Below the pieces are notes generated by a model that searched no databases, had not been told where the DNA came from, and was given only the letters and a program-made list of their open reading frames with translations. 53,100 nt of DNA from positions 1 through 53,100 of the IMG/VR virus record IMGVR_UViG_3300027985_001356, one strand, 5' to 3'. This document shows, in pieces, positions 845 through 49,782 of this stretch (the first letter of the stretch is position 1; each line of letters opens with the position of its first letter). A program made the position numbers and the translations under genes. This stretch comes from a virus. Taxonomy: Duplodnaviria; Caudoviricetes.

Positions 845-1018
845 ATCATAGAGCATTGCCATCTGCTCCAAGAATACATCCTTGGGAACCGCAGTTTGTG
901 CAGAGATCCTTACGAGCTCTGCAGCTAATGCCGGGATGACATAGTCCGGAGATCTGCGTTCGATCGCCTGTTTGATTGCGGAGGATGCTAGCTCGACTCC
1001 TGTTGGCAAGATACTCAT
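806..1018 (-). CDS. Hypothetical protein
   Basis: TAATG coupling to upstream plug gene. Confidence 0.6.
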   Translation of the reverse strand: MSILPTGVELASSAIKQAIERRSPDYVIPALAAELVRISAQTAVPKDVFLEQMAMLYDLACPLASPGPRP

Positions 1019-2115
1019 TAGTATTTCACCAGCCCAGGATACAAAAACTTAATCCAGTCTAGCACTTGCTGGTGTTCTGCGGATGCGTCGGTAATATATG
1101 TATCGGTTACGAAAATCTGTTTGACGTTCCCTTCGAGTTCTTGAAAGGAACCAATGCGGCCTACCTCGTTCCAGTTATGGGCGCCTGGCGCCCATGCTGT
1201 CGAGAACGTATTTTCAGCGTTGCCATCTACCGCGACAGTTAATGTGTTTGCGACGTCGTTGGCACTAAACCTTAGGAGGGTCCATCCCAAGACGGCAGAT
1301 CCTCCGATCTGGTTCCAGACTCCGGAAAAAATCCCTGGCCTTTGGTTTCCACCAGGGGAGGCGTGCGGAAAGAATCCTATGTTCCCCGTGTCGCTCCAAA
1401 AGAGGTTTTTGATCCCGGTATTGTTCGGGATCTCCATAAAGATATACGCGGTGGTATTTGCACCTATCCCTTTGGCGCTGGTGAACTGTAGGGCGTCCGT
1501 TTCGGCGGGGTCGTAAAATACAGTAGCGGTGCCATCAACATCCGGATCGACATACTTAGGATCTAGAGCCGTGGGGACGCCGTTGGTCAAATCGTTATTG
1601 CTGGGGCTCCTGTCTTCCCAATCGGTGACTCGCCCAGATAAGACTGTGGTACCAAAACTGGCATCAAACCATGCTGTTAGATTGAGCCCGAATATGGCGG
1701 ACGGATCACCTGGCGGAGGAAGCGGGGCTCCCAGGGTGGCTCTCACCGAGGTATTTGCTTGCTGTACTACTATAGATGCCTTTAGGGCGGCGATCTCAGC
1801 AGCATCTACGTAATTTAACAGGACGTCGACACCAAGCTGATTAAGTGTCGGGGGCTCAGTAACAACCCCTTGGTTGATGCTGATGATATTGCCGGCGGGA
1901 CGTGATGCCTCTTGCCACAACCTTAACAGCGACCATTCCGTTACGACCCTGATACCTGCGCGCAGAATCGTGTCATCAGTATCGAGGACTGTCATGTACC
2001 ATGAGTTATCTCGATCGTTGTAACGAAACTCGAGTTTGAACTCGACGCCGTCCAATTCTACTTCAAAATCGTAAAACGGAACATCTATCGTAAGAGGTAG
2101 CCTGTCAATTGCCAT
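1018..2115 (-). CDS. Baseplate plug-like protein (Pam3 gp18-like N-terminus) fused to LamG/ConA-like domain
   Basis: N-term FEVELDGVEFKLEFRYNDRDNSWYMTV...GIRVV; Pro linker; C-term LTAWFDAS...RVTDWEDRS...YPGL; start at ATG 2115 (MAIDRL). Confidence 0.75.
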   Translation of the reverse strand: MAIDRLPLTIDVPFYDFEVELDGVEFKLEFRYNDRDNSWYMTVLDTDDTILRAGIRVVTEWSLLRLWQEASRPAGNIISINQGVVTEPPTLNQLGVDVLLNYVDAAEIAALKASIVVQQANTSVRATLGAPLPPPGDPSAIFGLNLTAWFDASFGTTVLSGRVTDWEDRSPSNNDLTNGVPTALDPKYVDPDVDGTATVFYDPAETDALQFTSAKGIGANTTAYIFMEIPNNTGIKNLFWSDTGNIGFFPHASPGGNQRPGIFSGVWNQIGGSAVLGWTLLRFSANDVANTLTVAVDGNAENTFSTAWAPGAHNWNEVGRIGSFQELEGNVKQIFVTDTYITDASAEHQQVLDWIKFLYPGLVKY

Positions 2116-2128
2116 ATATAGGCCTAAG

Positions 2129-2157
2129 AGCTTACACTTCGTCGAATCAGACAGCAA
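2129..2157 (-). promoter_or_regulatory. Putative sigma70-type promoter for plug-LamG gene
   Basis: TTGCTG-N17-TAAGCT on minus strand, 13 nt before ATG. Confidence 0.4.
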
Positions 2158-2163
2158 GAGAGA

Positions 2164-2235
2164 GGGGCAGGGCAGCAAAAAGGTATGAGCATAATCCGAC
2201 AGAATTGAACAGATTAAAGATTGCTGCTCCGCCCC
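2164..2235. terminator. Long GC-rich inverted repeat separating early operon from plug gene
   Basis: ggggcagggcagcaa / ttgctgctccgcccc, 13 of 15 Watson-Crick; no clear U tract. Confidence 0.4.
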
Positions 2236-4750: not shown

Positions 4751-4908
4751 CTTCTTTCTCTCCTCTTTTCCGAGTGCAACTCTCTGATCGTGAGCTCGAC
4801 CCAGTCCGCGGCAGTCGCGGCGCTTTCAGATGCCTTCTTGACAGGAGTGCACGTGGCGAACTGCCTAAGCTGGGCTGCCACCCGTTTGAGTTCATCGCCT
4901 GGAGTCAT
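4747..4908 (-). CDS. Small hypothetical protein
   Basis: MTPGDELKRV...; ATGA overlaps at both ends. Confidence 0.6.
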   Translation of the reverse strand: MTPGDELKRVAAQLRQFATCTPVKKASESAATAADWVELTIRELHSEKRRERR

Positions 4909-5333
4909 GATCGCTTCTCCGTTGTTAGGTCTTTTAGTACGAGCTTGTGCTGGATCGCATGTGCGGTCTCTCTCAGCATTCCCGCAGAGACCTTTGATCC
5001 ACACAGCCATAACTCATCACACATCTCCAATACCCGCAGCCCTCTCTGTATCTGCTGCTCACGCTCGGCCACGTTGCCGTCATCCCAGTTCTCACAGGAG
5101 AGAATCCATGGGGCCACAAATGTGTGCTTGGGGTGCTCTTCCTCTAGCTTTCGGATGACACTCCGAGCTTTTGCGAGGTTTGCTGTCACGTCACCAGATA
5201 CGGGATGGGCCACAAAAACGATGGGGTTGATGGTCCTGCTCCTCTTGGTCGGATAAACATGCCCGCAGAGCGGACATGGACCACCATACTCCTCGAGCCC
5301 CATCTTGAGCTTAATCATCGGGTCCATCGGCAT
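4905..5333 (-). CDS. DUF4406/DUF7768-like (nucleoside deoxyribosyltransferase-like fold) protein with N-terminal CPLCG
   Basis: VFVAHPVSGD...N...FVAPW...CDELWLCG..SAGMxxE pattern; start uncertain. Confidence 0.7.
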   Translation of the reverse strand: MPMDPMIKLKMGLEEYGGPCPLCGHVYPTKRSRTINPIVFVAHPVSGDVTANLAKARSVIRKLEEEHPKHTFVAPWILSCENWDDGNVAEREQQIQRGLRVLEMCDELWLCGSKVSAGMLRETAHAIQHKLVLKDLTTEKRS

Positions 5334-5449
5334 GCGTATACGTATACGTGACCAGTAAGTCGCTGGGAAGAGCAAAACGAATGCTGTTCTGTTTTATTTG
5401 TAAACTAGCCAGGATTTCAAGGGGTTATTGTGCCAAGAAAAATCCGTCA

Positions 5450-6820: not shown

Positions 6821-7201
6821 TTAATCCTCAGGTTTGATTCCCTCGAGCGTCTCGCGCATCCACCGGATATAATCCTCAGCCTTCCTCGCCTCTTTGGCCG
6901 GGTCATCTTTCTCGCCCATCCGGTACAGGTATTTGATCGCAGTTAAGCGGCAGTATGCCGCAAACTCTTGTGGCGTGCTGATGGCTCGCATAACGTCGAT
7001 ACATTCGATGCCTCCACGGATGTAATGATCGACGGGGGGTCTGCTGTATTTGGGATCATCGATCTTGTTCACATAGACCTCGTCCTCACCCTGTTTGCAA
7101 GGGCATCGCGTAAAAGTCTCAGCGAGTTCGGCGCAGTTTTTACACCTCGCGAGTGAGGAGGCTGCATTTACCTTGATGGGGCCCAGCTCCTCCGCCGTCA
7201 T
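6821..7201 (-). CDS. DUF3310 (T7 gp1.7-like) family protein
   Basis: HYIRGGIECID...AIKYLYRMGEK...KAEDY. Confidence 0.85.
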   Translation of the reverse strand: MTAEELGPIKVNAASSLARCKNCAELAETFTRCPCKQGEDEVYVNKIDDPKYSRPPVDHYIRGGIECIDVMRAISTPQEFAAYCRLTAIKYLYRMGEKDDPAKEARKAEDYIRWMRETLEGIKPED

Positions 7202-16901: not shown

Positions 16902-17297
16902 ATGTCGAGTGCTGATGGCAGCAAGAATCTCCAGCCGGAGAGGCCGAGAAAGAGAAAGCCAACGCCTGCGTCGTGGAAGAAAGGCCAGAGTGGCAATCCG
17001 GAAGGACGCAGGAAGGAGATTGGTCATGTCCGCGAGCTAGCTAGGCTCTATACCGAAGATGCTATGAGCGCTTTGGCGGAGATTGTTAGGGACAGCAGCG
17101 AGAACGCCTCAGCTCGCGTACGGGCTTGCGAGGTCCTTTTAGATAGGGGCTGGGGGCGCCCGCCGGCTGCCCTTGAGCTCACGGGGTTCGATGGCGGACC
17201 CATCCTTTTTGAGGAGGCTCAGAATGAACTCGAAAGCATCCTTGATAGCATCTCTGTCCGATGCCGAGAGGAAAGCCTGGGTATCGAGCCTCACTAA
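16902..17297 (+). CDS. terS: Terminase small subunit (DUF5681-like)
   Basis: WKKGQSGNPEGR...ARVRACEVLLDRGWGRP; precedes TerL. Confidence 0.8.
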   Translation: MSSADGSKNLQPERPRKRKPTPASWKKGQSGNPEGRRKEIGHVRELARLYTEDAMSALAEIVRDSSENASARVRACEVLLDRGWGRPPAALELTGFDGGPILFEEAQNELESILDSISVRCREESLGIEPH

Positions 17298-18549
17298 AGA
17301 GCAGGCGGCTGCGCTTCGATGGGAATGGGCGTTTTTTGCTAGGCCCGAACAGCTGGCGCCCGAAGGGAATTGGGACACTTGGTTAATTCTTTCCGGCAGG
17401 GGTTGGGGTAAGAGTCGGACGGGCGCGGAGTGGGTCCGCTCGCTTGCTGAGTCTGGCAAGGCAAAGCGGATTGCCTTAGTTGGTGCAACGGCTGCGGACG
17501 TTCGCGATGTGATGATCGAGGGCGAGAGTGGCATTATGTCGATATGTCCTCCTTGGGATCGGCCTCTCTATGAGCCCAGCAAAAGGCGTATCACCTGGCC
17601 TAATGGTGCGATGGCGACAGCGTACAGCGCAGATGAGCCAGACAGACTCCGTGGGCCTCAGCATGATGCGGCCTGGTGCGACGAAATTGCAGCATGGCGC
17701 TACGGGGAGGCCTGGGACCAATTGCGCTTCGGTCTACGCTTAGGCGATAGACCTCAAACCGTGGTCACGACAACTCCAAGACCAACGCAGATGATACGCG
17801 ATCTAATCAAGCACAAGACCACCGTTGTTACGAAGGGTTCTACCTATGACAACAGGATGAATCTTGCCCCGACATTCTTCAGCCAGATCATATCTAAGTA
17901 CGAAGGGACACGGATAGGAAGGCAGGAGCTTCATGCGGAGCTTTTGGATGATGTCCAAGGGGCACTGTGGCAGCACGCTGATATCGATAAGTGTAGAGTC
18001 TCTACTGTCCCCTTGCTACGCAGGGCCGTTGTGGCAATAGACCCTGCCGTAACAAGTGGTGAGCATTCGGACGAGACAGGAATTATCGTTGCTGGCATCG
18101 ACGAGAAACGCCAGGGTTACGTCATTGCCGATCTGAGTGGGCAGTATTCCCCCGGGGAATGGGCCAAGGTGGCGGTGGATGCGTATTATAAATACGATGC
18201 AGATCGGGTTGTTGCCGAGGTGAATAATGGCGGCGATCTGGTTGAATTCACCCTTCGGACGGTTGCTCAAAACGTTAGCTACAAAGATGTTCGTGCAACG
18301 CGCGGGAAGTTTACCAGGGCTGAGCCGATCGCCGCGCTATACGAACAGCATAAAATTCATCATGTTGGGATGTTTGCCAAGCTTGAAGACCAGATGTGCA
18401 CCTACGTTCCAGGGGGCAAGTCCCCCGATCGGATGGATGCTCTCGTGTGGGCATTCTTCGACCTCATCGTCAAGGAGGAGTCGTTTTCCATTGGCACATT
18501 TGGTAGCTCGGTGTTTTCCACGGGGTTACGTAATGGCAGACACGTGTGA
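17224..18549 (+). CDS. terL: Terminase large subunit
   Basis: GRGWGKS Walker A, LRGPQ, WCDE Walker B, TTTP, AIDPA..DETG, EVNNGG, DRMDALVW. Confidence 0.96.
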   Translation: MNSKASLIASLSDAERKAWVSSLTKEQAAALRWEWAFFARPEQLAPEGNWDTWLILSGRGWGKSRTGAEWVRSLAESGKAKRIALVGATAADVRDVMIEGESGIMSICPPWDRPLYEPSKRRITWPNGAMATAYSADEPDRLRGPQHDAAWCDEIAAWRYGEAWDQLRFGLRLGDRPQTVVTTTPRPTQMIRDLIKHKTTVVTKGSTYDNRMNLAPTFFSQIISKYEGTRIGRQELHAELLDDVQGALWQHADIDKCRVSTVPLLRRAVVAIDPAVTSGEHSDETGIIVAGIDEKRQGYVIADLSGQYSPGEWAKVAVDAYYKYDADRVVAEVNNGGDLVEFTLRTVAQNVSYKDVRATRGKFTRAEPIAALYEQHKIHHVGMFAKLEDQMCTYVPGGKSPDRMDALVWAFFDLIVKEESFSIGTFGSSVFSTGLRNGRHV

Positions 18550-18637: not shown

Positions 18638-20230
18638 GTGAGTCTTGCCAAGGTACACAAACAAGAGCCCAGCAAGGTTCGCCCCTTGGATGTTTTAGGA
18701 TCTACAGGGCTAAAGCACCACGCGGGAATCATAGACGAGGAGTTTCTTACTCGACTGCGTGGCGAGAACGCGATCAAGACCTATCGCGAGATGGTCCACA
18801 ACAGCCCCACGATTGCGGCTGCTCTCAATGCAATCAAGATGCTTATCGGGCAAGTCAAATGGCGGGTTGAGCCTGCTGATGAATCGGATGCTGCTATTGC
18901 AGAGGCGGAGGACACGGAATCAGCGCTCGAGGATATGAGCCACACCTTTTCGTCCTTCGTGAGCGAAGCACTCTCGATGATCTGGGCAGGATATGCGCCG
19001 TTTGAGATTATCTATAAGCTTCGTCGAGGGCCAGACCAAGACGATGCGTCACTCCGCAGTAAGTTCAATGATGGAAAGTGGGGCTGGCGCAAGGTTGAGA
19101 TCAGAGGGCAAGAGACACTCTCTAACTGGGTCTTTGATGATGAGGGTGGTCTTAACGGGATGGTGCAATGGGATACGCATGCACCCCAGACAGGGTCTGT
19201 CTTTATCCCCATTGATAAAATGCTCCTGTTTCGCACGAGCACGTTTAAAAATAACCCAGAGGGCCAATCCATGCTTAGGCCCGCGGTTATCCCGTATTGG
19301 TTTACCAAGCGTATCCAGGAGTTCGAGGCAATCGGGATTGAGCGCAACTTGGCCGGGATGCCCATCATGGAGGTTCCTCCCGAAATTCTAGTCGCAGATG
19401 CATCCGCAGAGCATAGGGCTACGCGCACCTTCCTTGAACAGTTCGTCACTCAGGTGAAGATGGATGAACGATGGGGTGGTCTTGTTCCCAGCGAGCTCAA
19501 GCCCGACGGCTCGCCTAGCGGATACAAGTTCAAACTGATGCAGTCCTCTGGGCGCAAGCTCGTGGACACAGACATCATCATCAAACGTTACCGCTCTGAG
19601 ATGCTGATGCTGTTCATGGCGCAGTTTTTGGTCATGGGGACCGAAAAGGTTGGGTCCTTCTCGCTGTCGAGCAACATGACCGCGATGTTTGGCACGGCGC
19701 TTGGGGCGATTATGGATAATATCGCCGATACCGCGAATCGGTTCCTGATCCCTAGAAGGCAGAGGCTCAACAAGAGACCTCAAGAGCTAGATCCTGTACT
19801 TGTCCATGGAGACATTGAAGGGCCTGAGCTCGACAAGGTCGCGGCCTATATCAACCAACTCGCGTCGGCAGGGATGATTGGTCCAAATCCTGCGCTCGAG
19901 CGAAAGCTGATGGAGATTGGCAACCTGCCCCAGCCCGAGGAAGATGAAGAGGTGCCCCCGGCCCTGTCTGAGAACACGATCAATTCGACGGGTCGCCAAT
20001 CCCTCTCTGCAGATCAGGTAAAGGCCATGATGGAAATCCTAAGGGCCCTTAAAGGGGGCTTGCTCGATAGGCCATCTGCCATCATGGCGCTATCAGCTGC
20101 GCTAGGGATTAGCGAAGAGCAGGCGGAGGGGTTTATTCCGGCAGAACCCGAAGATCCTCCTCAGCCTGAAACAATATTGCCCTCGCCTGAGGAGATTGCA
20201 GAGTTGGCCGTCGAGGATGAGAATGAGTAA
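18638..20230 (+). CDS. Portal protein (DUF935-like)
   Basis: Follows TerL; NNPEGQSMLR, GIERNLAGMP, GSFSLS. Confidence 0.9.
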   Translation: MSLAKVHKQEPSKVRPLDVLGSTGLKHHAGIIDEEFLTRLRGENAIKTYREMVHNSPTIAAALNAIKMLIGQVKWRVEPADESDAAIAEAEDTESALEDMSHTFSSFVSEALSMIWAGYAPFEIIYKLRRGPDQDDASLRSKFNDGKWGWRKVEIRGQETLSNWVFDDEGGLNGMVQWDTHAPQTGSVFIPIDKMLLFRTSTFKNNPEGQSMLRPAVIPYWFTKRIQEFEAIGIERNLAGMPIMEVPPEILVADASAEHRATRTFLEQFVTQVKMDERWGGLVPSELKPDGSPSGYKFKLMQSSGRKLVDTDIIIKRYRSEMLMLFMAQFLVMGTEKVGSFSLSSNMTAMFGTALGAIMDNIADTANRFLIPRRQRLNKRPQELDPVLVHGDIEGPELDKVAAYINQLASAGMIGPNPALERKLMEIGNLPQPEEDEEVPPALSENTINSTGRQSLSADQVKAMMEILRALKGGLLDRPSAIMALSAALGISEEQAEGFIPAEPEDPPQPETILPSPEEIAELAVEDENE

Positions 20231-20627
20231 AGCGCTGCCTCAGATGGACTTTGATACCATGGCTATTGCCGCCGAATATTGGGGGCTAAGCGTCTCATGG
20301 TATCAAAGGTTTTTTTGGACGAGAAAGCGACTTCGCAAGGCTATCGGGTCTGCGATTCGGTGCCATGGATCGTTAGTAGGAACTGACGAGCATATTGCCA
20401 ATGTGCTTAAACGTGCATGTGTCGGGATTCATAGTGTCATCGTAACAACGCCGGAGGCGGGCAAGGTTAGTGTTCATCTAAACCACAAATGGTGGGCATT
20501 CTTTTGGGCGCGCAAGAATAAGCGATTGGCCGCTTCGGCTGATATATATCCAGCAGGTATCAGAGTCCAGGTGACGAGCTGGAACCACGAACGGCCCTCC
20601 GAAGGAGCTAGCAGTGTCAACCCTTGA
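20223..20627 (+). CDS. Hypothetical protein, P2 gpI-like motif pattern
   Basis: AEYWG..W...RLRKAI..AIRCH..GT...I; PAGIRV. Confidence 0.55.
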   Translation: MSKALPQMDFDTMAIAAEYWGLSVSWYQRFFWTRKRLRKAIGSAIRCHGSLVGTDEHIANVLKRACVGIHSVIVTTPEAGKVSVHLNHKWWAFFWARKNKRLAASADIYPAGIRVQVTSWNHERPSEGASSVNP

Positions 20628-20787
20628 TGATACCAAGAAGCAGTTGGAAGAGGCGCGCGCGATAGCTGCTGTCCTTGCCCATTGTTATGACAATGACAAT
20701 CGGCCTCCGTTCCATATGCTTGAACGGGCTAGGCGGTGGCAACATAAGTCAAGGAGCAGCGACGATGGACACGAAAGCCTCCTCTAA
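20614..20787 (+). CDS. 57-aa hypothetical protein (not in ORF track)
   Basis: AAGGAG SD, GTG start, MSTLDDTKKQLEEAR... Confidence 0.55.
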   Translation: MSTLDDTKKQLEEARAIAAVLAHCYDNDNRPPFHMLERARRWQHKSRSSDDGHESLL

Positions 20788-20929
20788 CGTCGCCAAGGTC
20801 TGCTATTTCTGCCGCACGCAGTTCGATGCACTGGACAAGCATTGGTCAAACGCGCCAGTGAGCCCAACAGAGCGGGGCAATGTTTGTGTTAACTGTCACT
20901 ATAAGGTGACAGGCGGGGAGCTGCGGTGA
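20765..20929 (+). CDS. Small Zn-ribbon protein
   Basis: AAGGAG SD; CYFC...CVNC. Confidence 0.6.
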   Translation: MDTKASSNVAKVCYFCRTQFDALDKHWSNAPVSPTERGNVCVNCHYKVTGGELR

Positions 20930-21159
20930 AAATCTTCACAGGCAAAACCATTCTATATATTGGCGAAGATGACTCCTTCAGGGAGAAGCGTTGTCATATC
21001 TGCAAAGCGAGCAACCCCCTTCATGCCGTGGTTGGCGTCCGTAATACCCATGAGGATTCAGAACACTTTGGCAAATGGCACGTCTTCTGTGGTGATAAGA
21101 TTGTTTGGCTGAGCCAGGAGGAGATTGATCGGGACTTTGTTGAGGTGAATGGGGGATGA
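20926..21159 (+). CDS. Small hypothetical protein
   Basis: GTGA-coupled. Confidence 0.6.
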   Translation: MKIFTGKTILYIGEDDSFREKRCHICKASNPLHAVVGVRNTHEDSEHFGKWHVFCGDKIVWLSQEEIDRDFVEVNGG

Positions 21160-21162
21160 ACA

Positions 21163-21360
21163 GTGGCAACCAAGCCTAAAGAGTCGCACTGGGGCGAAGA
21201 TGTTCCCACGTTTGACGCGGCATTCTACAAAGAGTGGCTAAATAACGAATTCAAGCGTGGCATGCGCGACATGCTCGCCAATGCTTTATGGGAAGACGCA
21301 ATAGTTCAAGCAGACGTGGACAGATATTTGGACCAATGGCGCAAGGTTGAGGGAGAGTGA
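21163..21360 (+). CDS. Small hypothetical protein
   Basis: GGGGG SD, GTG start. Confidence 0.6.
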   Translation: MATKPKESHWGEDVPTFDAAFYKEWLNNEFKRGMRDMLANALWEDAIVQADVDRYLDQWRKVEGE

Positions 21361-22633: not shown

Positions 22634-24997
22634 ATGCCACTAGTCGAAGCATGTTCTGTTGATGCGTTCCGCGAAAATATTCGCACTGAGATTAAAGCTG
22701 GAAAGAGTCCAAGCCAGGCCACTGCAATTGCCAGGCGAGTGCTTGATGATTCGTGCAAAAGGGAGGGGAAGCCAGTGCCTGATGAGATAGCCAAAGAGAA
22801 TAAGGCCAAGAAAGAAAATAAGCCCAATAGTCGAGAGTATTTGGAGGCTGCCCTTGAGCAAGCAAAGAAGCTTCTGCCTGGATGGATGTTCGCTGCGATT
22901 CATGCGGCGGCATTTCCCGCATCGGGTGGTAGGGCTGCCCGGAATCGCAGGCTTGAGGCAGCGGAAAAGCTATGGATCGAAAAAAAGGCAATCTCCTCAC
23001 TGTCCAATCAAGAGCTGAAGTCAATGCTTCACAAGCTCAACGTCACCTTTGCAGCGAACACAAGGCAGAAGAAAGACGTCAATGCTGTCCTGTCTCGGGT
23101 CAAGTCTGTTGTAGCCGAGATGAAAAAGCGAAAGATGGAAGTGAAGGGCAGAGCTGTTGACGCTATTGCCAAAGCAGAAACATCTGTTATTTCTGTCGAC
23201 GGTCCACAGGAATGGGGCGAGCTAAAGAAGGGTTTCCAGAATGGTGAGCCTGAGGGCGGAATGCATGCCCATGGTCTGGATAGGCAAAACTCCAAGACCC
23301 TGATGGACGGCGAGCACTTGCATCTCTTTGTGATCCCCGGCACCGGCGAGATGGTGTTAACCCTTGAAGACGGCGCCCATGCGCATGGTATTTCCAAGGA
23401 AGGCAACACAACCGAGTCTGATGGTACGCATTCGCACCGGGTTCCCATGATGGACGGGTCTGTACTTGAGACCACGCTCGGGGGTGCGCATGCGCACGAG
23501 CTAATGATCGAAACCAGTGGTTTTGGGGGATTGCACCAACATGTTTTGAAGTTGCAGGATGGGACGGAAATACCCTCTCTGTCACCAGCGGAGTTTGTCG
23601 CCAGGTTTGTCGATTTCTCCAGCATTGCTGCGCATCCGATCCACTCATCTCGAGATGTTGCCAATGCCCTGAATGAGGCGAGTGATTTGCGCGATCAGTT
23701 ATTCCCTTCAGCTGGGTTCCCTACCCCAGATCAACTCGTGGAAGATTTCGCCAAAGGCAAAGAGCGGCCCCCGCTACCCAACACCTGTTGGGAAGTAGTC
23801 CGGTTAGCCAAGGACGGGGCCTTTTGTGCGCTGTCTGATATGGACGACCCGGTTCTTGTACAGAATTCTATAGGGCTGGATTTGGCCGTTGGCGATGTGG
23901 TGGAGTTGGATGCGCATGCCCAAATTGTCGCGTATTCAAAGTCTTCCGAGCCTCACAGTTTCGAGGAAGCGAACACATTAGCCACCTATGTAAGCATAGT
24001 GGAGAAGTCGCTAGAGAACATCCCTTTTGCCGGCCCGCAAGGAGCGCCACTTGTATTTGTATCGGCGACACCGACAAATCTAGAGTTCGCGCGAAAGGAA
24101 GGTCTTGCGGGTCAAGATGGTGAGATTTTCCAGGAGAAATACCTGTCTCCTTTAGGGCTTACAAAGAAGGATGTTGGTATTGGGTTTGCGATCCCCGTGC
24201 GATGCCCTGAGCCTAACAATGATCATATCGATCTGTGGCGCGATTCGTTGTTGAAATCACTATCGATATACGACAGTGCAAAGGTTGTTGCTTTGGGGAG
24301 ATGGGCAAAGGAGGCGCTGGGGCCTATTGCTAGCTTTTCACTTCCCCATCCTGCTGCTGTTCGGCGCCATGGCGACAGAGGTGAAGTGCAACGCAAGCTC
24401 AAGTCCATCCGCAAAGTACTTGACAACAAAGATGTAACCATTGATTCTAAACCAAGTTCTAGCTCTTCGCCGATGCAAGGTGAATCTGGGGCGACCCTCG
24501 CTGATTCCATAAGTGAGCTGAGCCAAGGCGGAAGCCTTCGCGTGTCGGTAGCAAAGTCGTTACCCGAGAAGCAAATTGTTTATGGAGTCATCCTGGATCC
24601 GTATCAGGTTGATTTGCACAACGACTGGATACCGCCCGCGGAGATAGAGGCCACCGCTCATGACTTCCTTACGAAGTCGCGCGTTGTTGGCCTTCGCCAT
24701 GCTGGGAAGGCGGAAGCCGAAGTTGTGGAGAGCTGGGTTGAGGTATATCCGACAAAAGAAGACAGAGAGCTTGCTTTGCAGAATCTGCCCCACCGAGCGA
24801 ATCGGCGGGAATTCGGCGGTGACGTGCTTCACTCGGGGGCTTGGGTCGCGGGGGTTAAGCTAACAGATGAACTCTGGGAGCTGCATAAGCGCGGCGAGCT
24901 GGATGCTTTCAGCATTGGCGGTTTCAGCTTTAAGACGCAGGTCTCTACGGATGCGATGCCCGAAGTTGAGTTCATCGATCTCGCTCCGCAGGCATAA
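22634..24997 (+). CDS. Prohead protease (XkdF-like C-terminus) with N-terminal His-repeat and UDG-like domains
   Basis: C-term VYGVILDP..VDLHND..EIEATAHDF...H...ESW...GAW...GELDAFSIGG; located between MuF and scaffold. Confidence 0.88.
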   Translation: MPLVEACSVDAFRENIRTEIKAGKSPSQATAIARRVLDDSCKREGKPVPDEIAKENKAKKENKPNSREYLEAALEQAKKLLPGWMFAAIHAAAFPASGGRAARNRRLEAAEKLWIEKKAISSLSNQELKSMLHKLNVTFAANTRQKKDVNAVLSRVKSVVAEMKKRKMEVKGRAVDAIAKAETSVISVDGPQEWGELKKGFQNGEPEGGMHAHGLDRQNSKTLMDGEHLHLFVIPGTGEMVLTLEDGAHAHGISKEGNTTESDGTHSHRVPMMDGSVLETTLGGAHAHELMIETSGFGGLHQHVLKLQDGTEIPSLSPAEFVARFVDFSSIAAHPIHSSRDVANALNEASDLRDQLFPSAGFPTPDQLVEDFAKGKERPPLPNTCWEVVRLAKDGAFCALSDMDDPVLVQNSIGLDLAVGDVVELDAHAQIVAYSKSSEPHSFEEANTLATYVSIVEKSLENIPFAGPQGAPLVFVSATPTNLEFARKEGLAGQDGEIFQEKYLSPLGLTKKDVGIGFAIPVRCPEPNNDHIDLWRDSLLKSLSIYDSAKVVALGRWAKEALGPIASFSLPHPAAVRRHGDRGEVQRKLKSIRKVLDNKDVTIDSKPSSSSSPMQGESGATLADSISELSQGGSLRVSVAKSLPEKQIVYGVILDPYQVDLHNDWIPPAEIEATAHDFLTKSRVVGLRHAGKAEAEVVESWVEVYPTKEDRELALQNLPHRANRREFGGDVLHSGAWVAGVKLTDELWELHKRGELDAFSIGGFSFKTQVSTDAMPEVEFIDLAPQA

Positions 24998-25021: not shown

Positions 25022-25912
25022 ATGCCCACAGTCGTGAACATGCTCACCGCCGTTCAAACGGCAGAGGTGAGTCTCGTTAAGCGTGGCGCTAACAATAAGC
25101 GCTTCGCCCTAACCAAATCCAAGGAGCAGCAGATGCCAATTCAGGAGCTAGCCAAGACGGTTATCGAAACTGAAGCGGAAGGCGAAGGCAAGCTGATTGA
25201 GACTCTCAAGGCCGCTGGAGCGGATGAGGAAACAATCGGTATCTCGGTCGCAAATTTCCGACTTCAGAGCGGGTTCAAGGACAAACTGAGCAAGGAAGCG
25301 TTTCGCGCTGTCGCAGAGGCTTCAGGGTTTGAGGTCGCGAAGGCCAAAAAAACCGAAGATGAGGAAGATGAAGAGGAGGGCAATCCGTTCGCCTCTAAGA
25401 AAAAAACGACCAAAGAGGAGGGGGAACCCATGACAGAAGAAATGCGAAAAGCATTTGACGAGCAACAGGCGGAGCTAGTCGAGTTACGAAAAGCCGCTGC
25501 GGAAAAGGACGCTCGTATCGAGAGGATCGAAAAAGCGGCTCAACTTAAAGAATACGTTGCCAAGTGCGCGTCTGACTATGCCCATGTTCCTGGCTCTAGC
25601 GCCGAGGAAATGGGAGAGATGCTGCAGAAGGCATATTCTGTCGATGAAGATCTGGGCAAGAGGTTGGAAAAACAGTGGGCGGAAGCTTCCGAGGCAATCA
25701 AAAAGTCCGAGCTTATCCGTTCTCGCGGCATCAATGCTGTAAGCGATGGTAGCGGAACTGCTTGGGGCAAAATGGAGGCATTCGCCAAAGAGCTCACGGT
25801 GAAGAACGAGGGTCTTTCCGAAGGCAAGGCGATGAGGCTTGTCATGGAACAGCACCCGGAACTGTACCAAGAATACCTCAACGAGAATCCAGCGCAGCTG
25901 GGTCGTCGATAG
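25022..25912 (+). CDS. Capsid scaffolding protein
   Basis: EVSLVKRGAN..F N-term, charged coiled coil, HPELYQEY end. Confidence 0.8.
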   Translation: MPTVVNMLTAVQTAEVSLVKRGANNKRFALTKSKEQQMPIQELAKTVIETEAEGEGKLIETLKAAGADEETIGISVANFRLQSGFKDKLSKEAFRAVAEASGFEVAKAKKTEDEEDEEEGNPFASKKKTTKEEGEPMTEEMRKAFDEQQAELVELRKAAAEKDARIERIEKAAQLKEYVAKCASDYAHVPGSSAEEMGEMLQKAYSVDEDLGKRLEKQWAEASEAIKKSELIRSRGINAVSDGSGTAWGKMEAFAKELTVKNEGLSEGKAMRLVMEQHPELYQEYLNENPAQLGRR

Positions 25913-25926
25913 AAAGGAATTGAATC

Positions 25927-26301
25927 ATGGCATATGATAATGCGAGATATACCCTGCCCGGGATTAGCGCGGGTGCGGATCTGACAGCAGCGCAGCATAG
26001 GTTTGTGTCTATTGATGCAACCGGACGCGCTGTTCTTACGGCAGCAGGCGCGCGTGTTGATGGCGTCGTGGACAACAAGCCCAATCTTGATGAAGCAGCC
26101 GCTGTCCTTGGATACGGATCCGTTGCGAAGGTAGAAGCGAGTGCCGCAATTGCTGCGGGTGCTTCTGTTGCGTCTGCTGCAAACGGTCAGGCTGTTACAG
26201 CAACTCTTAATGCTTTCATTGCTGGTGTATGCGTCGAGGCCGCAGGCGCCGCGGGTGAGCTTTGTTCCATCTACCTAGCCTCTCATGGACAGTCGCCGTA
26301 A
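25927..26301 (+). CDS. Capsid cement/decoration protein (DUF2190-like)
   Basis: Ala/Gly-rich, AGADL..HRFV, directly before MCP. Confidence 0.8.
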   Translation: MAYDNARYTLPGISAGADLTAAQHRFVSIDATGRAVLTAAGARVDGVVDNKPNLDEAAAVLGYGSVAKVEASAAIAAGASVASAANGQAVTATLNAFIAGVCVEAAGAAGELCSIYLASHGQSP

Positions 26302-26340: not shown

Positions 26341-27309
26341 ATGCCTCAACCAACAGCATCAGATGTACATGTTAACAGACCGCTCACCAATGTCAGCGAA
26401 GCGTTCTTGCAAGATCTTACCGGCTTCGTTGCTCGTAAAGTGTTCCCTGTTGTTCCTGTTTCCAAGCAGAGCGACCGCTATTTTAAGTATGACAAGAAAC
26501 AGTGGTTTCGAACCGACGCCAAAGTTCGTGCACCGTCGACGGAATCCGCTGGGTCCGGGTTCACGATCGACAACACTCCTACGTATTTTGCGAAAGTCGT
26601 CGCTCTGCATAAGGATGTTGACGATCAGATCCGAGCCAACTCGGATGCACCAATCAACCCCGACAATGACGCGACGGAGTTTGTCACTCGTCAGCTAATG
26701 CTCCAACAGGAGCAGGATTGGGCTGCGAAGTATTTCACCACAGGCGTATGGACTGGGTCGACCACCGGGACCGACGTAACCCCAGGTGTTCTCTGGGATG
26801 TTCCGGCAACCTCGAATCCTATCGAAGATTTGCGGGCGCAAATTACCGCAGTAGGCAGGAATTCGGGACTCGAAGCAAACACGCTGGTTCTAGGGAAAGA
26901 AGTTTGGGACGTTCTTCAGGATCATCCCGACTTTCTCGAGCGCATTAAGTTCACCCAGACAGCGATCGTTGCACCCGATCTACTGGCTGCAGTTCTGGGC
27001 CTTGATAGAGTGCTTGTGGCGAAGGCTGTCCAAGACACTGCTGCAGAGGGTGCGGCTGCGAGCCATGCGTTTGTGCATGGCAAGAACGCTCTCGTCACCT
27101 ATTCAGCTCCGCGCCCAAGCCTGATGAAGCCAAGCGGGGGGTATACCTTCGCGTGGACGGGTCTTCTTGGAGCCAACAGCTCAGGGATGCGCATTAAGCG
27201 ATTCCGGATGGTTGAGTTGTCGTCTGACCGTATCGAGGGTGAGAGTGCATATGACCACAAGGTCGTGTCGCCCGAGGCCGGCGCTTTCTTGAGCGCTGTT
27301 ATTTCGTAA
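26341..27309 (+). CDS. Major capsid protein (lambda E-like)
   Basis: LTNVS, VFPVVPV.KQS..Y, SNPIED, NTLVLG, HPD..ERIK. Confidence 0.92.
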   Translation: MPQPTASDVHVNRPLTNVSEAFLQDLTGFVARKVFPVVPVSKQSDRYFKYDKKQWFRTDAKVRAPSTESAGSGFTIDNTPTYFAKVVALHKDVDDQIRANSDAPINPDNDATEFVTRQLMLQQEQDWAAKYFTTGVWTGSTTGTDVTPGVLWDVPATSNPIEDLRAQITAVGRNSGLEANTLVLGKEVWDVLQDHPDFLERIKFTQTAIVAPDLLAAVLGLDRVLVAKAVQDTAAEGAAASHAFVHGKNALVTYSAPRPSLMKPSGGYTFAWTGLLGANSSGMRIKRFRMVELSSDRIEGESAYDHKVVSPEAGAFLSAVIS

Positions 27310-27377: not shown

Positions 27378-27818
27378 ATGTACAAAGCACTCCGTCCCTT
27401 TAAATATCAGACCGCCAGCGGCGAAATTAAGATAACGGTCCCGGGGCAGTCTATCCCCGAGGCTAGCGGCTGGAAGAATCTCAAGATATTTCTTGAGCGT
27501 AGGTGGATTTGTAAAGAAGGTGAAGAACCGAACAGGCGGCATTATTCAGCAAAGGTTCCCAAGACGGCACCGACAGTTAAAGCTGTGCCGAAAACGAGCC
27601 CCGTCAAGGTTGCCACTAAGGTTGCAACTAAGGTTTCCACCGAGCCTGTTGTTAGAAAGAAGGACAAAGAGACCAGGGAGGCGACTCCTCGAAAGCATAC
27701 TTCCCGAGATCTTGAGTCCATGTCGAAAAAAGAACTCCAGAGTCTCGCCAAGTCTCTGGATGTGGATCCGCATCAGCCTAAAGCCGACCTTGTAGCATCT
27801 GTCTTGGCTGCCCAATGA
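27378..27818 (+). CDS. Basic virion-associated protein with Rho-N/HeH-like C-terminus
   Basis: LESMSKKELQSLAKSLDV...KADLV; KVAT repeats. Confidence 0.7.
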   Translation: MYKALRPFKYQTASGEIKITVPGQSIPEASGWKNLKIFLERRWICKEGEEPNRRHYSAKVPKTAPTVKAVPKTSPVKVATKVATKVSTEPVVRKKDKETREATPRKHTSRDLESMSKKELQSLAKSLDVDPHQPKADLVASVLAAQ

Positions 27819-48921: not shown

Positions 48922-49098
48922 AAATTCTGAGCTGCAGAGAGCTCAAGCTGAAATCCGATGGCTCCGGGACGAATTCCGGAGCTTGCAGTATATCGTGTGC
49001 ACTCAGAGTCGCAGCTTCGAGGTGTGGAAGGCTGTCATTCGCGAGGCTCTTCGCAAATCAGAGATAAGATACCCAATCCCTCGTACAGGTGGAGACCC

Positions 49099-49782
49099 AT
49101 GGAGTGGCTAGCTAGATTTGTGCATTGGTTGATCGCAAAGCGCGACAAGACAATTGCTCCGCCGCCAGAGCCAAAGGTGGACCCATCTGAGACAACGCTA
49201 GTGGATGCGCCGGCGATCATAAGAGCGCTGGAATGGAAGCCATTCGTAGGGCCCTTGGACGCCTTGCCAAGGAATCGGAGAGAGGTTTATGAAATCTTTG
49301 GTAACCCAGGCTCGGGCACAGTCGATAAGAAGTGGAAGAAGGAAAATATCAGGACATATCGGGACCTGCCTGGAATCCCGCGAAAATGGTACTTTCAGTT
49401 TCACAGGCTGGCAGAGCCAAACCTGAGAGAGGGGTTGCGACGAGCCCGGATTGCCGCGCCAGATTACGAGATTACGAGGGCAGGTGGGTTTGTGTTTCGC
49501 CATATCAGACATGACTCGTCCCGGCCTCTATCGAAACACAGCTGGGGAATCGCCATCGACATCAACCCAAAGCAAAACTCTGCAAAGTATTTCAGGCCGC
49601 GTGGTACAGCACCTGAAATGTGGAGTGAAGAGTGGTTGAAGATCTGGCCCAACGGTGTTCCAAAAGCATGGGTAGAAGCTATGCAGAGCGCCGGATTTGT
49701 CTGGGGCGGAAACTGGGATAGTGACGAAACGTCTACCGATCATACCTTCATTGACAACATGCATTGCGAGATTTCCGGGTAG
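49099..49782 (+). CDS. Endolysin, M15 Zn peptidase
   Basis: GGFVFR, SKHSWGIAIDIN, GFVWGGNW, DNMHCE. Confidence 0.88.
   Translation: MEWLARFVHWLIAKRDKTIAPPPEPKVDPSETTLVDAPAIIRALEWKPFVGPLDALPRNRREVYEIFGNPGSGTVDKKWKKENIRTYRDLPGIPRKWYFQFHRLAEPNLREGLRRARIAAPDYEITRAGGFVFRHIRHDSSRPLSKHSWGIAIDINPKQNSAKYFRPRGTAPEMWSEEWLKIWPNGVPKAWVEAMQSAGFVWGGNWDSDETSTDHTFIDNMHCEISG

Follow-up and report, generated by a model that had tools for sequence, protein, structure and literature searches.

A stretch of 53,100 nucleotides, hereafter the window, makes up the viral record IMGVR_UViG_3300027985_001356 (Duplodnaviria; Caudoviricetes), which is complete, with direct terminal repeats, and encodes a contractile-tailed phage (myovirus). 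In its head module one gene (22634..24997, plus strand) specifies a polyprotein of 787 amino acids, designated P0001, in which N-terminal motifs, basic helices, six HxH repeats, a barrel resembling an oligonucleotide/oligosaccharide-binding (OB) domain, a uracil-DNA glycosylase (UDG) fold and a disordered linker are followed by an XkdF-type head-maturation protease. We read P0001 as a modular head-protease precursor with which DNA- and metal-binding modules enter the procapsid, and give this reading a probability of roughly 55%; a protease-borne capsid cargo system of the polyvalent type is the best reading that we have. It is well known that phages smuggle proteins into cells together with their DNA, as with the internal proteins of T4, the Dar proteins of P1, MuF-fused toxins and polyvalent proteins, and capsid-packaged multi-domain effectors are already established as a concept. 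How, then, is such cargo addressed to the capsid? To our knowledge, this is understood in only a few cases. The family of P0001 suggests a modular answer, in which the cargo is tied to the head protease and the protease is tied to the scaffold. If this is true, the system would offer a transferable tag by which selected proteins can be loaded into capsids, would explain why hundreds of phage head genes annotated as 'uracil-DNA glycosylase' have conserved a UDG fold devoid of catalytic residues, would make packaged ligases and end-repair enzymes a way to rescue or circularise incoming genomes, and would define a new conserved histidine-repeat domain.

The protease end and its predicted scaffold partner

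The last ~150 residues of P0001 (24545-24997), which the original prediction had taken for an XkdF-like protease, match Pfam PF14550 (XkdF / Peptidase_S78_2) over residues 639-766 with 66.3 bits against a cut-off of 24 (E 3.5e-18); the 37 aligned homologues all match this family too. The C-terminus also matches phrog_3017, the head maturation protease family, at E 1.4e-17, and H689, H720, S700, S734 and S760 are invariant in the 37 sequences; sequence searches turned up no solved XkdF structure. The gene order of the head module is TerL, portal, MuF, P0001, scaffold, cement and capsid, followed by neck, sheath, tube, tape measure and baseplate genes, so that P0001 lies between the portal/MuF and the scaffold/capsid genes, where an XkdF member is expected. 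The same slot is kept among the relatives: a scaffold homologue stands immediately 3′ of the gene in 55 of 59 related viral loci, and the other four loci end within ~750 bases past the gene, which agrees with the prohead protease originally proposed. A second match to phrog_3017 in the genome (E 6.1e-5 in a PHROGs scan of 56 open reading frames, ORFs) falls on the first 58 residues of the scaffold-like protein, which has no XkdF domain in Pfam, and head-protease families of Pfam were found in none of the 29 ORFs scanned; an M15 peptidase domain at 48958-49779 is not a head protease. P0001 is the only head-maturation protease found in the genome.

It might be asked whether such a long fusion is a chimera of assembly. 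The GC content across the ORF is even (0.52-0.54), and 80 homologues of P0001 were found, ~60 of them full length. The full order of modules is the same in 42 of 144 unique relatives collected from JGI, ENA, Logan and NCBI, by which a chimera is ruled out. An AlphaFold2 model built from 37 homologues has a mean predicted local distance difference test (pLDDT) of 76 and shows helices along residues 9-183, a β-rich part at 209-318 (pLDDT 55-80), helices again to about residue 373 and, with pLDDT above 90, residues 365-598 as a single unit in which a five-strand barrel (384-434) and a helix (443-460) precede the UDG fold. Since the domain searches and this model recover them at the places proposed, all the segments of the original prediction are real. 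Its short MPL... module at the N-terminus corresponds to a phrog_2423 match and to two helices at pLDDT 87-94; its basic helical region is helical over residues 49-183 with an isoelectric point of 10.1; and its six GxHxH repeats at ~23255-23560 are the motifs running from H211 to H301. For the barrel and the UDG fold, the names that had been given need the restrictions described below.

A hint of how P0001 would enter the head comes from the gene behind it. The scaffold-like protein begins with a motif, L..L...EVSLV.RGAN.K(K)RF...K, which 52 of 55 scaffold ORFs from related loci display; for the remaining three, the start as called is too far upstream for the motif to fall within the first 60 residues. 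Positions 5-52 of the phrog_3017 profile match the scaffold and positions 41-157 match P0001, and in canonical XkdF proteins, as represented by this profile, the scaffold-type motif is found in cis ahead of the protease domain. When residues 630-787 of P0001 and residues 1-60 of the scaffold, both given as alignments, were subjected to complex prediction, an ipSAE of 0.69 was obtained (0.69, 0.62 and 0.85 in three runs) versus 0.00 for the best of three controls; this mark is reached by 58 of 80 solved complexes and by 2 of 110 mismatched pairs. At least 68% of contacts are common to the runs, with a partner pLDDT of 47-50. In the model, scaffold residues 1-22 lie on residues 653-697 and 739-775 of P0001, and V16-V19 of the scaffold pair with F759, S760 and I761 and are also in contact with G686. 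The predicted binding partner of the protease domain is thus the strand at the conserved scaffold N-terminus, close to the invariant S760, G686 and H689, and such docking would give P0001 a route into the procapsid. The prediction expresses a likeness to a split protein and not a measured binding, and it fits two readings, in which the scaffold either recruits the precursor or serves the protease as its first substrate. We also looked for the motif in the disordered linker ahead of the protease: the motif hidden Markov model (HMM) gave nothing significant in 144 relatives (best E 1.1), and hhalign paired only RFALTKS with RVSVAKS over 12 columns at E 0.086, so that a copy of the scaffold motif in the polyprotein linker is unproven. 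This linker holds a conserved consensus motif of its own, PS.G..GATLAD.ISEL, the linker HMM matches 62 of 144 relatives, and it may be regarded as a putative cleavage site.

A UDG fold fixed to the protease

The domain at ~24020-24420 had been described as family-4 UDG-like, and of this description the fold stands while the family does not. Pfam PF03167 (UDG superfamily) passes narrowly on residues 467-582 (27.0 bits versus a cut-off of 24.3, E 5.3e-6). The modelled segment is a UDG fold: Foldseek finds 1ui0 at E 5.5e-8 with a template-modelling score by target of 0.62, and VIA-align places UdgX 6ail first (Z 15.7, root-mean-square deviation, rmsd, 1.9, 140 residues aligned), before the family-4 UDG 1l9g (Z 15.5) and the family-5 UDGB 2d3y (Z 14.4), so that family-4 UDGs and UdgX rank first in both searches. 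A profile of the polyprotein family aligns to the Sulfolobus family-4 UDG 4zbx at E 2.5e-8. We take motif A, GE[AG]PG, with its Glu, the pocket Asn of ITN, the stacking Phe of PFVG and the four Cys of a 4Fe-4S cluster to be the features of family 4. Compared with 4zbx, GEAPG has become S477-A478-T479-P480-T481 in P0001, the Phe of PFVG has become L492 and the Asn of ITN has become F518, and only the motif-B His is kept, as H572 in LPHPAA. The family behaves in the same manner. Among 141 related domains, 129 of which have the motif-A segment aligned, the motif-A Glu is found in 3 of 129, the pocket Asn in 21 of 129 and the Phe of PFVG in 30 of 129, while the motif-B His is found in 135 of 140 and R487 in 123 of 129; the Cys per UDG-like domain have a median of 1 and a maximum of 3 in the 141 domains, and the four-Cys cluster is never reached. 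The NCBIfam cut-offs of family 4 are far from being attained by P0001 (TIGR00758, 21.4 bits versus 125.3; NF040953, 23.6 versus 250). We conclude that the domain has the UDG fold and is no member of family 4, and it is probably not a uracil glycosylase. What P0001 has in common with family-4 UDGs and UdgX is the fold and the motif-B His; the motif-A Glu and the four-Cys cluster are theirs and not its own.

Could the domain nevertheless be a working glycosylase of unusual mechanism or specificity, which relies on the motif-B His and acts during packaging, in the head or after injection, as part of a packaged kit for base excision or end joining together with the ligase and end-cleaning domains of the relatives? 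Family-5 UDGb enzymes have no polar residue in motif A and rely on the motif-B His, and the near-constancy of this His and of R487, as well as the structural match to 2d3y, would suit such an enzyme. Relatives with a ligase have retained the pocket Asn and, in more cases, the Phe, and some relatives combine an ATP DNA ligase with a stretch weakly similar to the LigD 3′-phosphoesterase, below the Pfam cut-off (see below). However, three of the four canonical features of the uracil site are altered in P0001, the NCBIfam scores stay far below their cut-offs (21-24 bits versus 125 and 250), no ligase or nuclease accompanies the domain in P0001 itself, and genome scans found no gene for modified or uracil-containing DNA. 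For these reasons we hold an active repair enzyme to be a poor candidate. Uracil-containing or modified phage DNA as a target of the UDG fold was dropped, because no supporting gene was recognised: PHROGs and Pfam scans of 50 + 29 ORFs recognised no polymerase, dUTPase or base-modification gene. Two products of the minus strand have suggestive PHROGs labels, 'nucleoside 2-deoxyribosyltransferase' at 4905-5375 (E 5.9e-13) and 'nucleotide kinase' at 6821-7201 (E 4.9e-16); Pfam gives only DUF7768 and DUF3310 there, and the names should not be taken as evidence for DNA modification.

If the fold is not kept for uracil excision, for what is it kept? A query of the UDG part only (residues 440-600) against 1.84 billion representative proteins returned 285 proteins at E <= 1e-3, of which 226 reach E <= 1e-10; since there are only 285 matches at the former threshold, the clade is small and well separated from ordinary UDGs. 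An XkdF domain lies downstream, as judged by a custom family HMM, in 140 of the best 150 of the 285, and about half of the other ten stop just past the UDG region, probably because the contig ends there. Among the 144 unique relatives, XkdF is present in all 144 and the UDG-like domain in 141. Because of these two proportions, we count the UDG fold as belonging to the chassis, permanently paired with the protease, rather than as swappable cargo. The idea of interchangeable cargo in XkdF architectures thus holds for the slot upstream of the UDG fold, which varies, and fails for the UDG fold itself. Public annotation calls the relatives 'uracil-DNA glycosylase' or '2′-5′ RNA ligase', names which hide the place of these proteins in the head module. 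A UDG fold inside a larger phage protein has a counterpart in the N-terminus of phage family-A DNA polymerases (phiLo 9qhs, Z 12.7, 131 residues aligned; also PolA matches in BFVD); judging from the entry titles, its partner there is the polymerase, while in P0001 it is the head protease.

The constancy of the fold invites another explanation, namely that the modules ahead of the protease, the UDG fold and the His repeats among them, serve assembly only, as an exapted internal core, a spacer or a regulator that keeps the protease inactive until heads assemble, and are degraded or expelled at maturation with nothing delivered. As a rule, prohead proteases and scaffolds are broken down and lost from the head. 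A UDG fold which is deprived of the family-4 catalytic Glu, pocket Asn and Fe-S cysteines, and which persists even in minimal forms of 284-350 residues, fits a role in the working of the protease itself, and the remaining modules of P0001 match no enzyme family. On the other hand, R487, Y503 and H572 are near-invariant, which argues for a retained ligand or DNA site over bulk, and a spacer role provides no explanation for ligase, 2H, methyltransferase and kinase inserts that score well above their Pfam cut-offs (ligase, 90.7 versus 26.2 bits). We therefore regard the assembly-only explanation as unlikely, even though it is the most serious of the rivals to a cargo role.

Upstream of the UDG fold, the OB-like remnant suspected at ~23780-23960 turned out to be a modelled five-strand barrel with OB matches, a putative OB domain. 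VIA-align on residues ~381-460 finds OB domains of capping enzymes (3s24, Z 7.8, 77 residues aligned; 1ckm, Z 7.5), proteasomal ATPases (3fp9, Z 7.2; 2wg5, Z 7.0), ribosomal OB proteins and the ATP-dependent DNA ligase 4d05 (Z 6.0); 3s24, 1ckm, 3fp9 and 4d05 align over 53-77 residues, and all the matches are in the ambiguous zone under the VIA-align safe zone of Z 8. Foldseek pointed to proteasome Rpt subunits (E ~4e-4), which were not accepted as such with an rmsd of 24-27 Å, and the OB reading, which is plausible, depends on VIA-align. G420 and D421 of the barrel are invariant. In 29 ligase-bearing relatives, 117-140 residues lie between the adenylation domain of the ligase and the UDG fold, and hhalign weakly aligns this segment to the barrel (48 columns including G420-D421, E 0.0036, probability 9%). 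Possibly the barrel is what is left of a ligase, namely its OB half.

Exchangeable modules and the histidine repeats

The modules ahead of the core differ among relatives: His repeats, ATP DNA ligase, 2H phosphoesterase, S-adenosylmethionine (SAM) methyltransferase or kinase. Pfam finds, in 41 ORFs from 59 related viral loci, XkdF in 41 and always as the last domain, UDG in 28, ATP DNA ligase in 13, SAM methyltransferase in 2, an AAA_33 kinase-like domain in 1 and DUF5824 in 3, and most of the ORFs without a Pfam UDG still match the custom family HMM. In a second set, 73 of the 127 representatives newly returned by the UDG-only search (the other 54 lay outside the scan), XkdF is found in 66, 2′-5′ RNA ligase/2H in 13, DNA ligase in 10, methyltransferase in 3, AAA_33 in 1, DUF5661 in 2 and DUF3721 in 1. 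Custom HMMs applied to 270 unique proteins give the UDG-like domain in 266, XkdF in 259, the N-terminal REYLE motif in 185, the His module in 89, ligase in 33, 2H in 27, methyltransferase in 8 and kinase in 4. On a FastTree tree of the UDG+XkdF core with 210 rows (60 others, in which either domain was absent or incomplete, were left out), the smallest possible number of changes was 23 for the His module (mean of 67 in 200 label shuffles), 9 for ligase (21), 18 for 2H (24) and 3 for kinase (4), all of these being counts that truncated ORFs and FastTree errors inflate; despite this upward bias they show modules that have been repeatedly gained or lost.

Three parts are constant across the relatives: the REYLE motif, the UDG fold and the protease. 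The REYLE motif is found in 119 of 144 relatives, and its 185 carriers in the larger set include the ligase- and 2H-bearing forms; its residues L70, G98 and G99 are invariant. It is a candidate element for targeting to, or anchoring in, the capsid. The MPL module in front of it is optional, being present in 66 of 144 relatives. The conservation of the REYLE motif bears on one more explanation, according to which the fusion secures co-expression only: the precursor would cleave itself in the cytoplasm, the N-terminal modules would act on replicating or concatemeric DNA prior to its packaging, and only the protease would enter the head. Modules separated by disordered linkers, and a genome with recombination and resolution genes (RecE/YqaJ-like, RusA) in which no polymerase or ligase gene of its own was found in the PHROGs and Pfam scans, can be accommodated in this scheme. 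However, a fusion for mere co-expression does not explain why the motif is retained across differing enzymes, and a late head operon, expressed at the stoichiometry of structural proteins, would be an odd place for a replication-stage enzyme. A late cytoplasmic function thus seems very improbable.

Further variation was observed around these modules. Ligase-bearing relatives (P0071, P0072, P0074 and P0077) and 39 of 140 representatives have an extra insert of ~250 residues between the UDG fold and XkdF. In two of the four proteins it resembles the LigD 3′-phosphoesterase (Pfam E 0.02-0.03, below cut-off), and in one of four a Pol-beta-type nucleotidyltransferase appears at Pfam E 0.18; both are leads only. 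An inserted module with the motif LPDSAF...GG...R..P......DLPH.RNA.AR is found in P0037, P0061 and P0079, and an insert of ~70 residues with F.K..FKTR..A..W...HDF....ET...R..Q in P0039, P0042, P0045, P0048, P0052, P0054 and P0059. In P0043, P0050 and L010 a P-loop kinase-like domain (AAA_33) precedes the MPL... module, whose Met-Pro-Leu is retained internally, as if an upstream gene had been fused recently. Two unnamed viral proteins in BFVD, A0A516MCN4 (892 residues, E 3.7e-23) and A0A516KYX7 (789 residues, E 8.5e-19), align to the model over ~500 columns; because of these entries, the architecture can be said to be already in UniProt as uncharacterised proteins. In species-representative genomes only three loci were found, all on contigs of metagenome-assembled genomes labelled Deltaproteobacteria, Thiohalocapsa and Dehalococcoidales.

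In P0001 itself the variable slot is occupied by the His module. Its six G-x-HxH motifs start at H211, 228, 249, 266, 286 and 301 with a spacing of 15-21 residues, and none of the 12 His varies among the 37 aligned homologues; when the whole P0001 was shuffled with its composition kept, six HxH were reached in 5 of 20,000 shuffles. The six-HxH repeat appears to be a new conserved domain. A phmmer search of the PDB gave no hit at E <= 10, and a search for shorter stand-alone forms yielded one fragment. Modelled alone by AlphaFold2 on 66 sequences, the module becomes a β meander (pLDDT 62.5, pTM 0.54), and the best fold match of this monomer among 48,161 chains in VIA-align is Z 4.1, with no chain at Z >= 5. 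Pfam YmaF (PF12788), a Bacillota spore-associated family, has G-x-HxH...T-type repeats in common with it; the score on residues 248-314 of P0001 is below cut-off (14.1 bits versus 27, E 0.071), and 11 of 37 family members match YmaF at E <= 0.1 (best 9.3e-4), also below cut-off in every case. In ESM Atlas a YmaF cluster is the second neighbour of the module (score 0.75), which is a lead only. A distant kinship with YmaF is possible from these sequence similarities; passages on YmaF proteins describe them as spore-associated and of unknown function (PMC13339774, PMC3789822). Another likeness is to phage fibres and spikes. In T4 gp37-type tail fibres, according to passages of one report, HxH motifs stand ~22 residues apart and three chains give six His per iron (PMC11705849). 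Repeated HxH motifs ~15-22 residues apart on β strands are common to such fibres or spikes and to the His module; the HxH fibres of that report are trimeric tail proteins, unlike the His module, which belongs to a head gene and is known from its sequence and a monomer model. The apex of P2 gpV is reportedly an HxH iron site of a phage spike.

A possible capsid-loading route and the neighbourhood of the gene

How might the parts work together? In the cargo reading, docking on the scaffold would draw the whole precursor into the assembling procapsid, where the protease would next digest the scaffold and cut its own disordered linkers. The folded OB+UDG unit and the His module would exceed the size of the capsid pores and remain with the DNA, and the OB+UDG pair, having lost uracil excision, might now be a DNA anchor which holds cargo on the genome. 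The cargo would then enter the host along with the DNA; that of the relatives would there mend, ligate or methylate the genome that has just arrived, or act against defences based on RNA and nucleotides. By analogy with polyvalent proteins, the enzymes of the relatives would make most sense at the first moment of infection.

Several points weigh against this reading. The shortest relatives consist of UDG+XkdF only (e.g., L059 of 284 residues), and since they hold nothing else, the core has a role without any cargo. Because other XkdF proteins have the scaffold-type motif in cis, the docking score may reflect intrachain contacts learned from them, and the fold of the scaffold partner is itself uncertain, its pLDDT being under 50 in two runs out of three. 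The inflated change counts on the core tree are to be added here. In a tblastn search of 50,697 phage records, six records matched, all of them only with residues ~639-770, the XkdF part, and no cultured relative of the fusion was found. The N-terminal modules of P0001 match no known enzyme, so that a cargo with a function in the host would be argued from what the relatives contain. Finally, folded internal proteins would need to pass through the tail tube.

A bolder form of the cargo reading can be imagined. In it, XkdF with its obligate OB/UDG anchor would be a general capsid-loading chassis that is pulled in by the scaffold strand, and self-cleavage would leave on the DNA payload enzymes for the first minute of infection, which differ between phages (ligase, end-cleaning, methylase, 2H phosphoesterase and kinase domains); the payload here would be the six-HxH domain with iron or zinc, perhaps as a trimeric, metal-stapled needle like the tip of T4 gp37, able to travel down the tail tube. 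We put this forward only tentatively, as a speculation less probable than the plain cargo reading.

Comparison with known systems helps to place the proposal. In T4, an N-terminal capsid-targeting sequence loads the internal proteins and Alt, the gp21 protease removes this sequence, and the proteins are ejected with the DNA. The T4 proteins and the system proposed for P0001 would both be loaded via scaffold and protease; cargo and protease are separate in T4 and covalently joined here. Canonical XkdF proteases (phrog_3017; Haloarcula virus HHTV-2, Bacillus phages B83 and BMBtp14) have the C-terminal domain and the place in the head module in common with P0001, and the tblastn matches of the XkdF part fall under genes annotated as prohead protease. 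In the canonical layout of phrog_3017, the EVSLV.RGAN motif precedes the protease and a scaffold-like tail follows it, whereas in P0001 the protease comes last, ~640 residues of other modules stand ahead of it and the motif is on a separate scaffold protein. XkdF is mentioned only as a presumed head protease in PMC7824862 and PMC5964084, and Peptidase_S78_2 only in a domain table in PMC7326821.

Closest in concept are the polyvalent proteins of phages and conjugative elements, in which, according to the main text of the paper describing them, an assemblin-like peptidase is always C-terminal (Iyer, Burroughs, Anand, de Souza and Aravind, 2017; PMC5512222). As described there, they resemble the P0001 family in having many unrelated domains per polypeptide, a location beside portal and MuF genes, and enzymes targeting nucleic acids, such as the 2H phosphoesterase; P0001 likewise unites several disparate domains in one polypeptide of a phage with portal and TerL. 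XkdF, UDG, glycosylase, YmaF and DNA ligase do not occur in the main text of PMC5512222, which thus does not describe the fixed UDG-fold/XkdF core, the His-repeat module or the scaffold docking of the P0001 family. The literature searched contains no report of an XkdF-borne form with an obligate UDG-fold partner, a six-HxH domain or scaffold-strand docking, with the reserve that the supplements and figures of PMC5512222 could list such architectures.

The features of P0001 and its neighbours in the head module are collected in Table 1.

Table 1. Segments of the polyprotein P0001 and surrounding head-module genes in the window (positions in nucleotides; aa, amino acids)
Feature	Position	Strand	Remarks
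Terminase (TerL)	17173-18549		
Mu-type portal protein	18638..20230	+	Pfam Portal_Mu E 1.9e-33
MuF-like head morphogenesis protein, upstream neighbour of P0001	21527..22516	+	Pfam Phage_Mu_F E 2.4e-13; phrog_3517 E 1.3e-32
Polyprotein gene P0001, whole	22634..24997	+	Single ORF of 787 aa, no internal stop
Optional N-terminal module, aa 1-48, MPL..CS..NI..EI.AGK..QA.AIA	22634..22777	+	phrog_2423 E 5.9e-11 (aa 1-34)
Conserved N-terminal (REYLE) motif, aa 62-112, REYLEAAL..A.K.LPGW.FA.I..AA.P.SGG	22817..22969	+	
Basic helical region, aa 113-183	22970..23182	+	Helices at aa 125-183 in the model
Disordered linker 1, aa 184-208	23183..23257	+	pLDDT <50; column conservation 0.16
His-repeat module, aa 209-318, six G-x-HxH...T repeats	23258..23587	+	
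OB-like five-strand β barrel, aa 375-440	23756..23953	+	pLDDT >90
UDG-fold domain, aa 441-598, without family-4 catalytic features	23954..24427	+	
Disordered linker 2, aa 599-637 (disorder in the model 600-643)	24428..24544	+	pLDDT 30-35
XkdF-type (Peptidase_S78_2) protease domain, aa 638-787	24545..24997	+	Pfam; phrog_3017
Scaffold-like protein	25022..25912	+	phrog_17741; N-terminal part of phrog_3017
Scaffold N-terminal motif, aa 1-36, predicted docking site for the protease domain	25022-25129	+	
Cement protein	25927-26301		
Major capsid protein	26341..27309	+	phrog_1005 E 2e-84

A few other genes in the window may deserve attention. Between the portal and MuF genes there is a run of small ORFs at 20614-21360 (plus strand), of which 20675-20929 and 20926-21159 are Cys-rich with paired CxxC and have the look of zinc ribbons; the product of 20926-21159 has no match in Pfam. 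Between the capsid and neck genes, 27378-27818 (plus strand) encodes a protein of 146 residues with a Lys/Thr/Val-rich repeat (KVATKVATKVST), the C-terminus of which is SAP-like (Pfam SAP E 4e-4, below cut-off; phrog_3281 'endonuclease VII' E 2.7e-6 on the same part), and this product may be a candidate DNA-binding protein of the head or neck. The minus-strand early region encodes DnaC/DnaD-like loaders, a YqaJ/RecE-type exonuclease and RusA; in this region, far from the tail module, 1018-2178 (minus strand) encodes a protein of 385 residues with the baseplate-plug domain of cyanophage Pam3 gp18 (Pfam E 8e-17).

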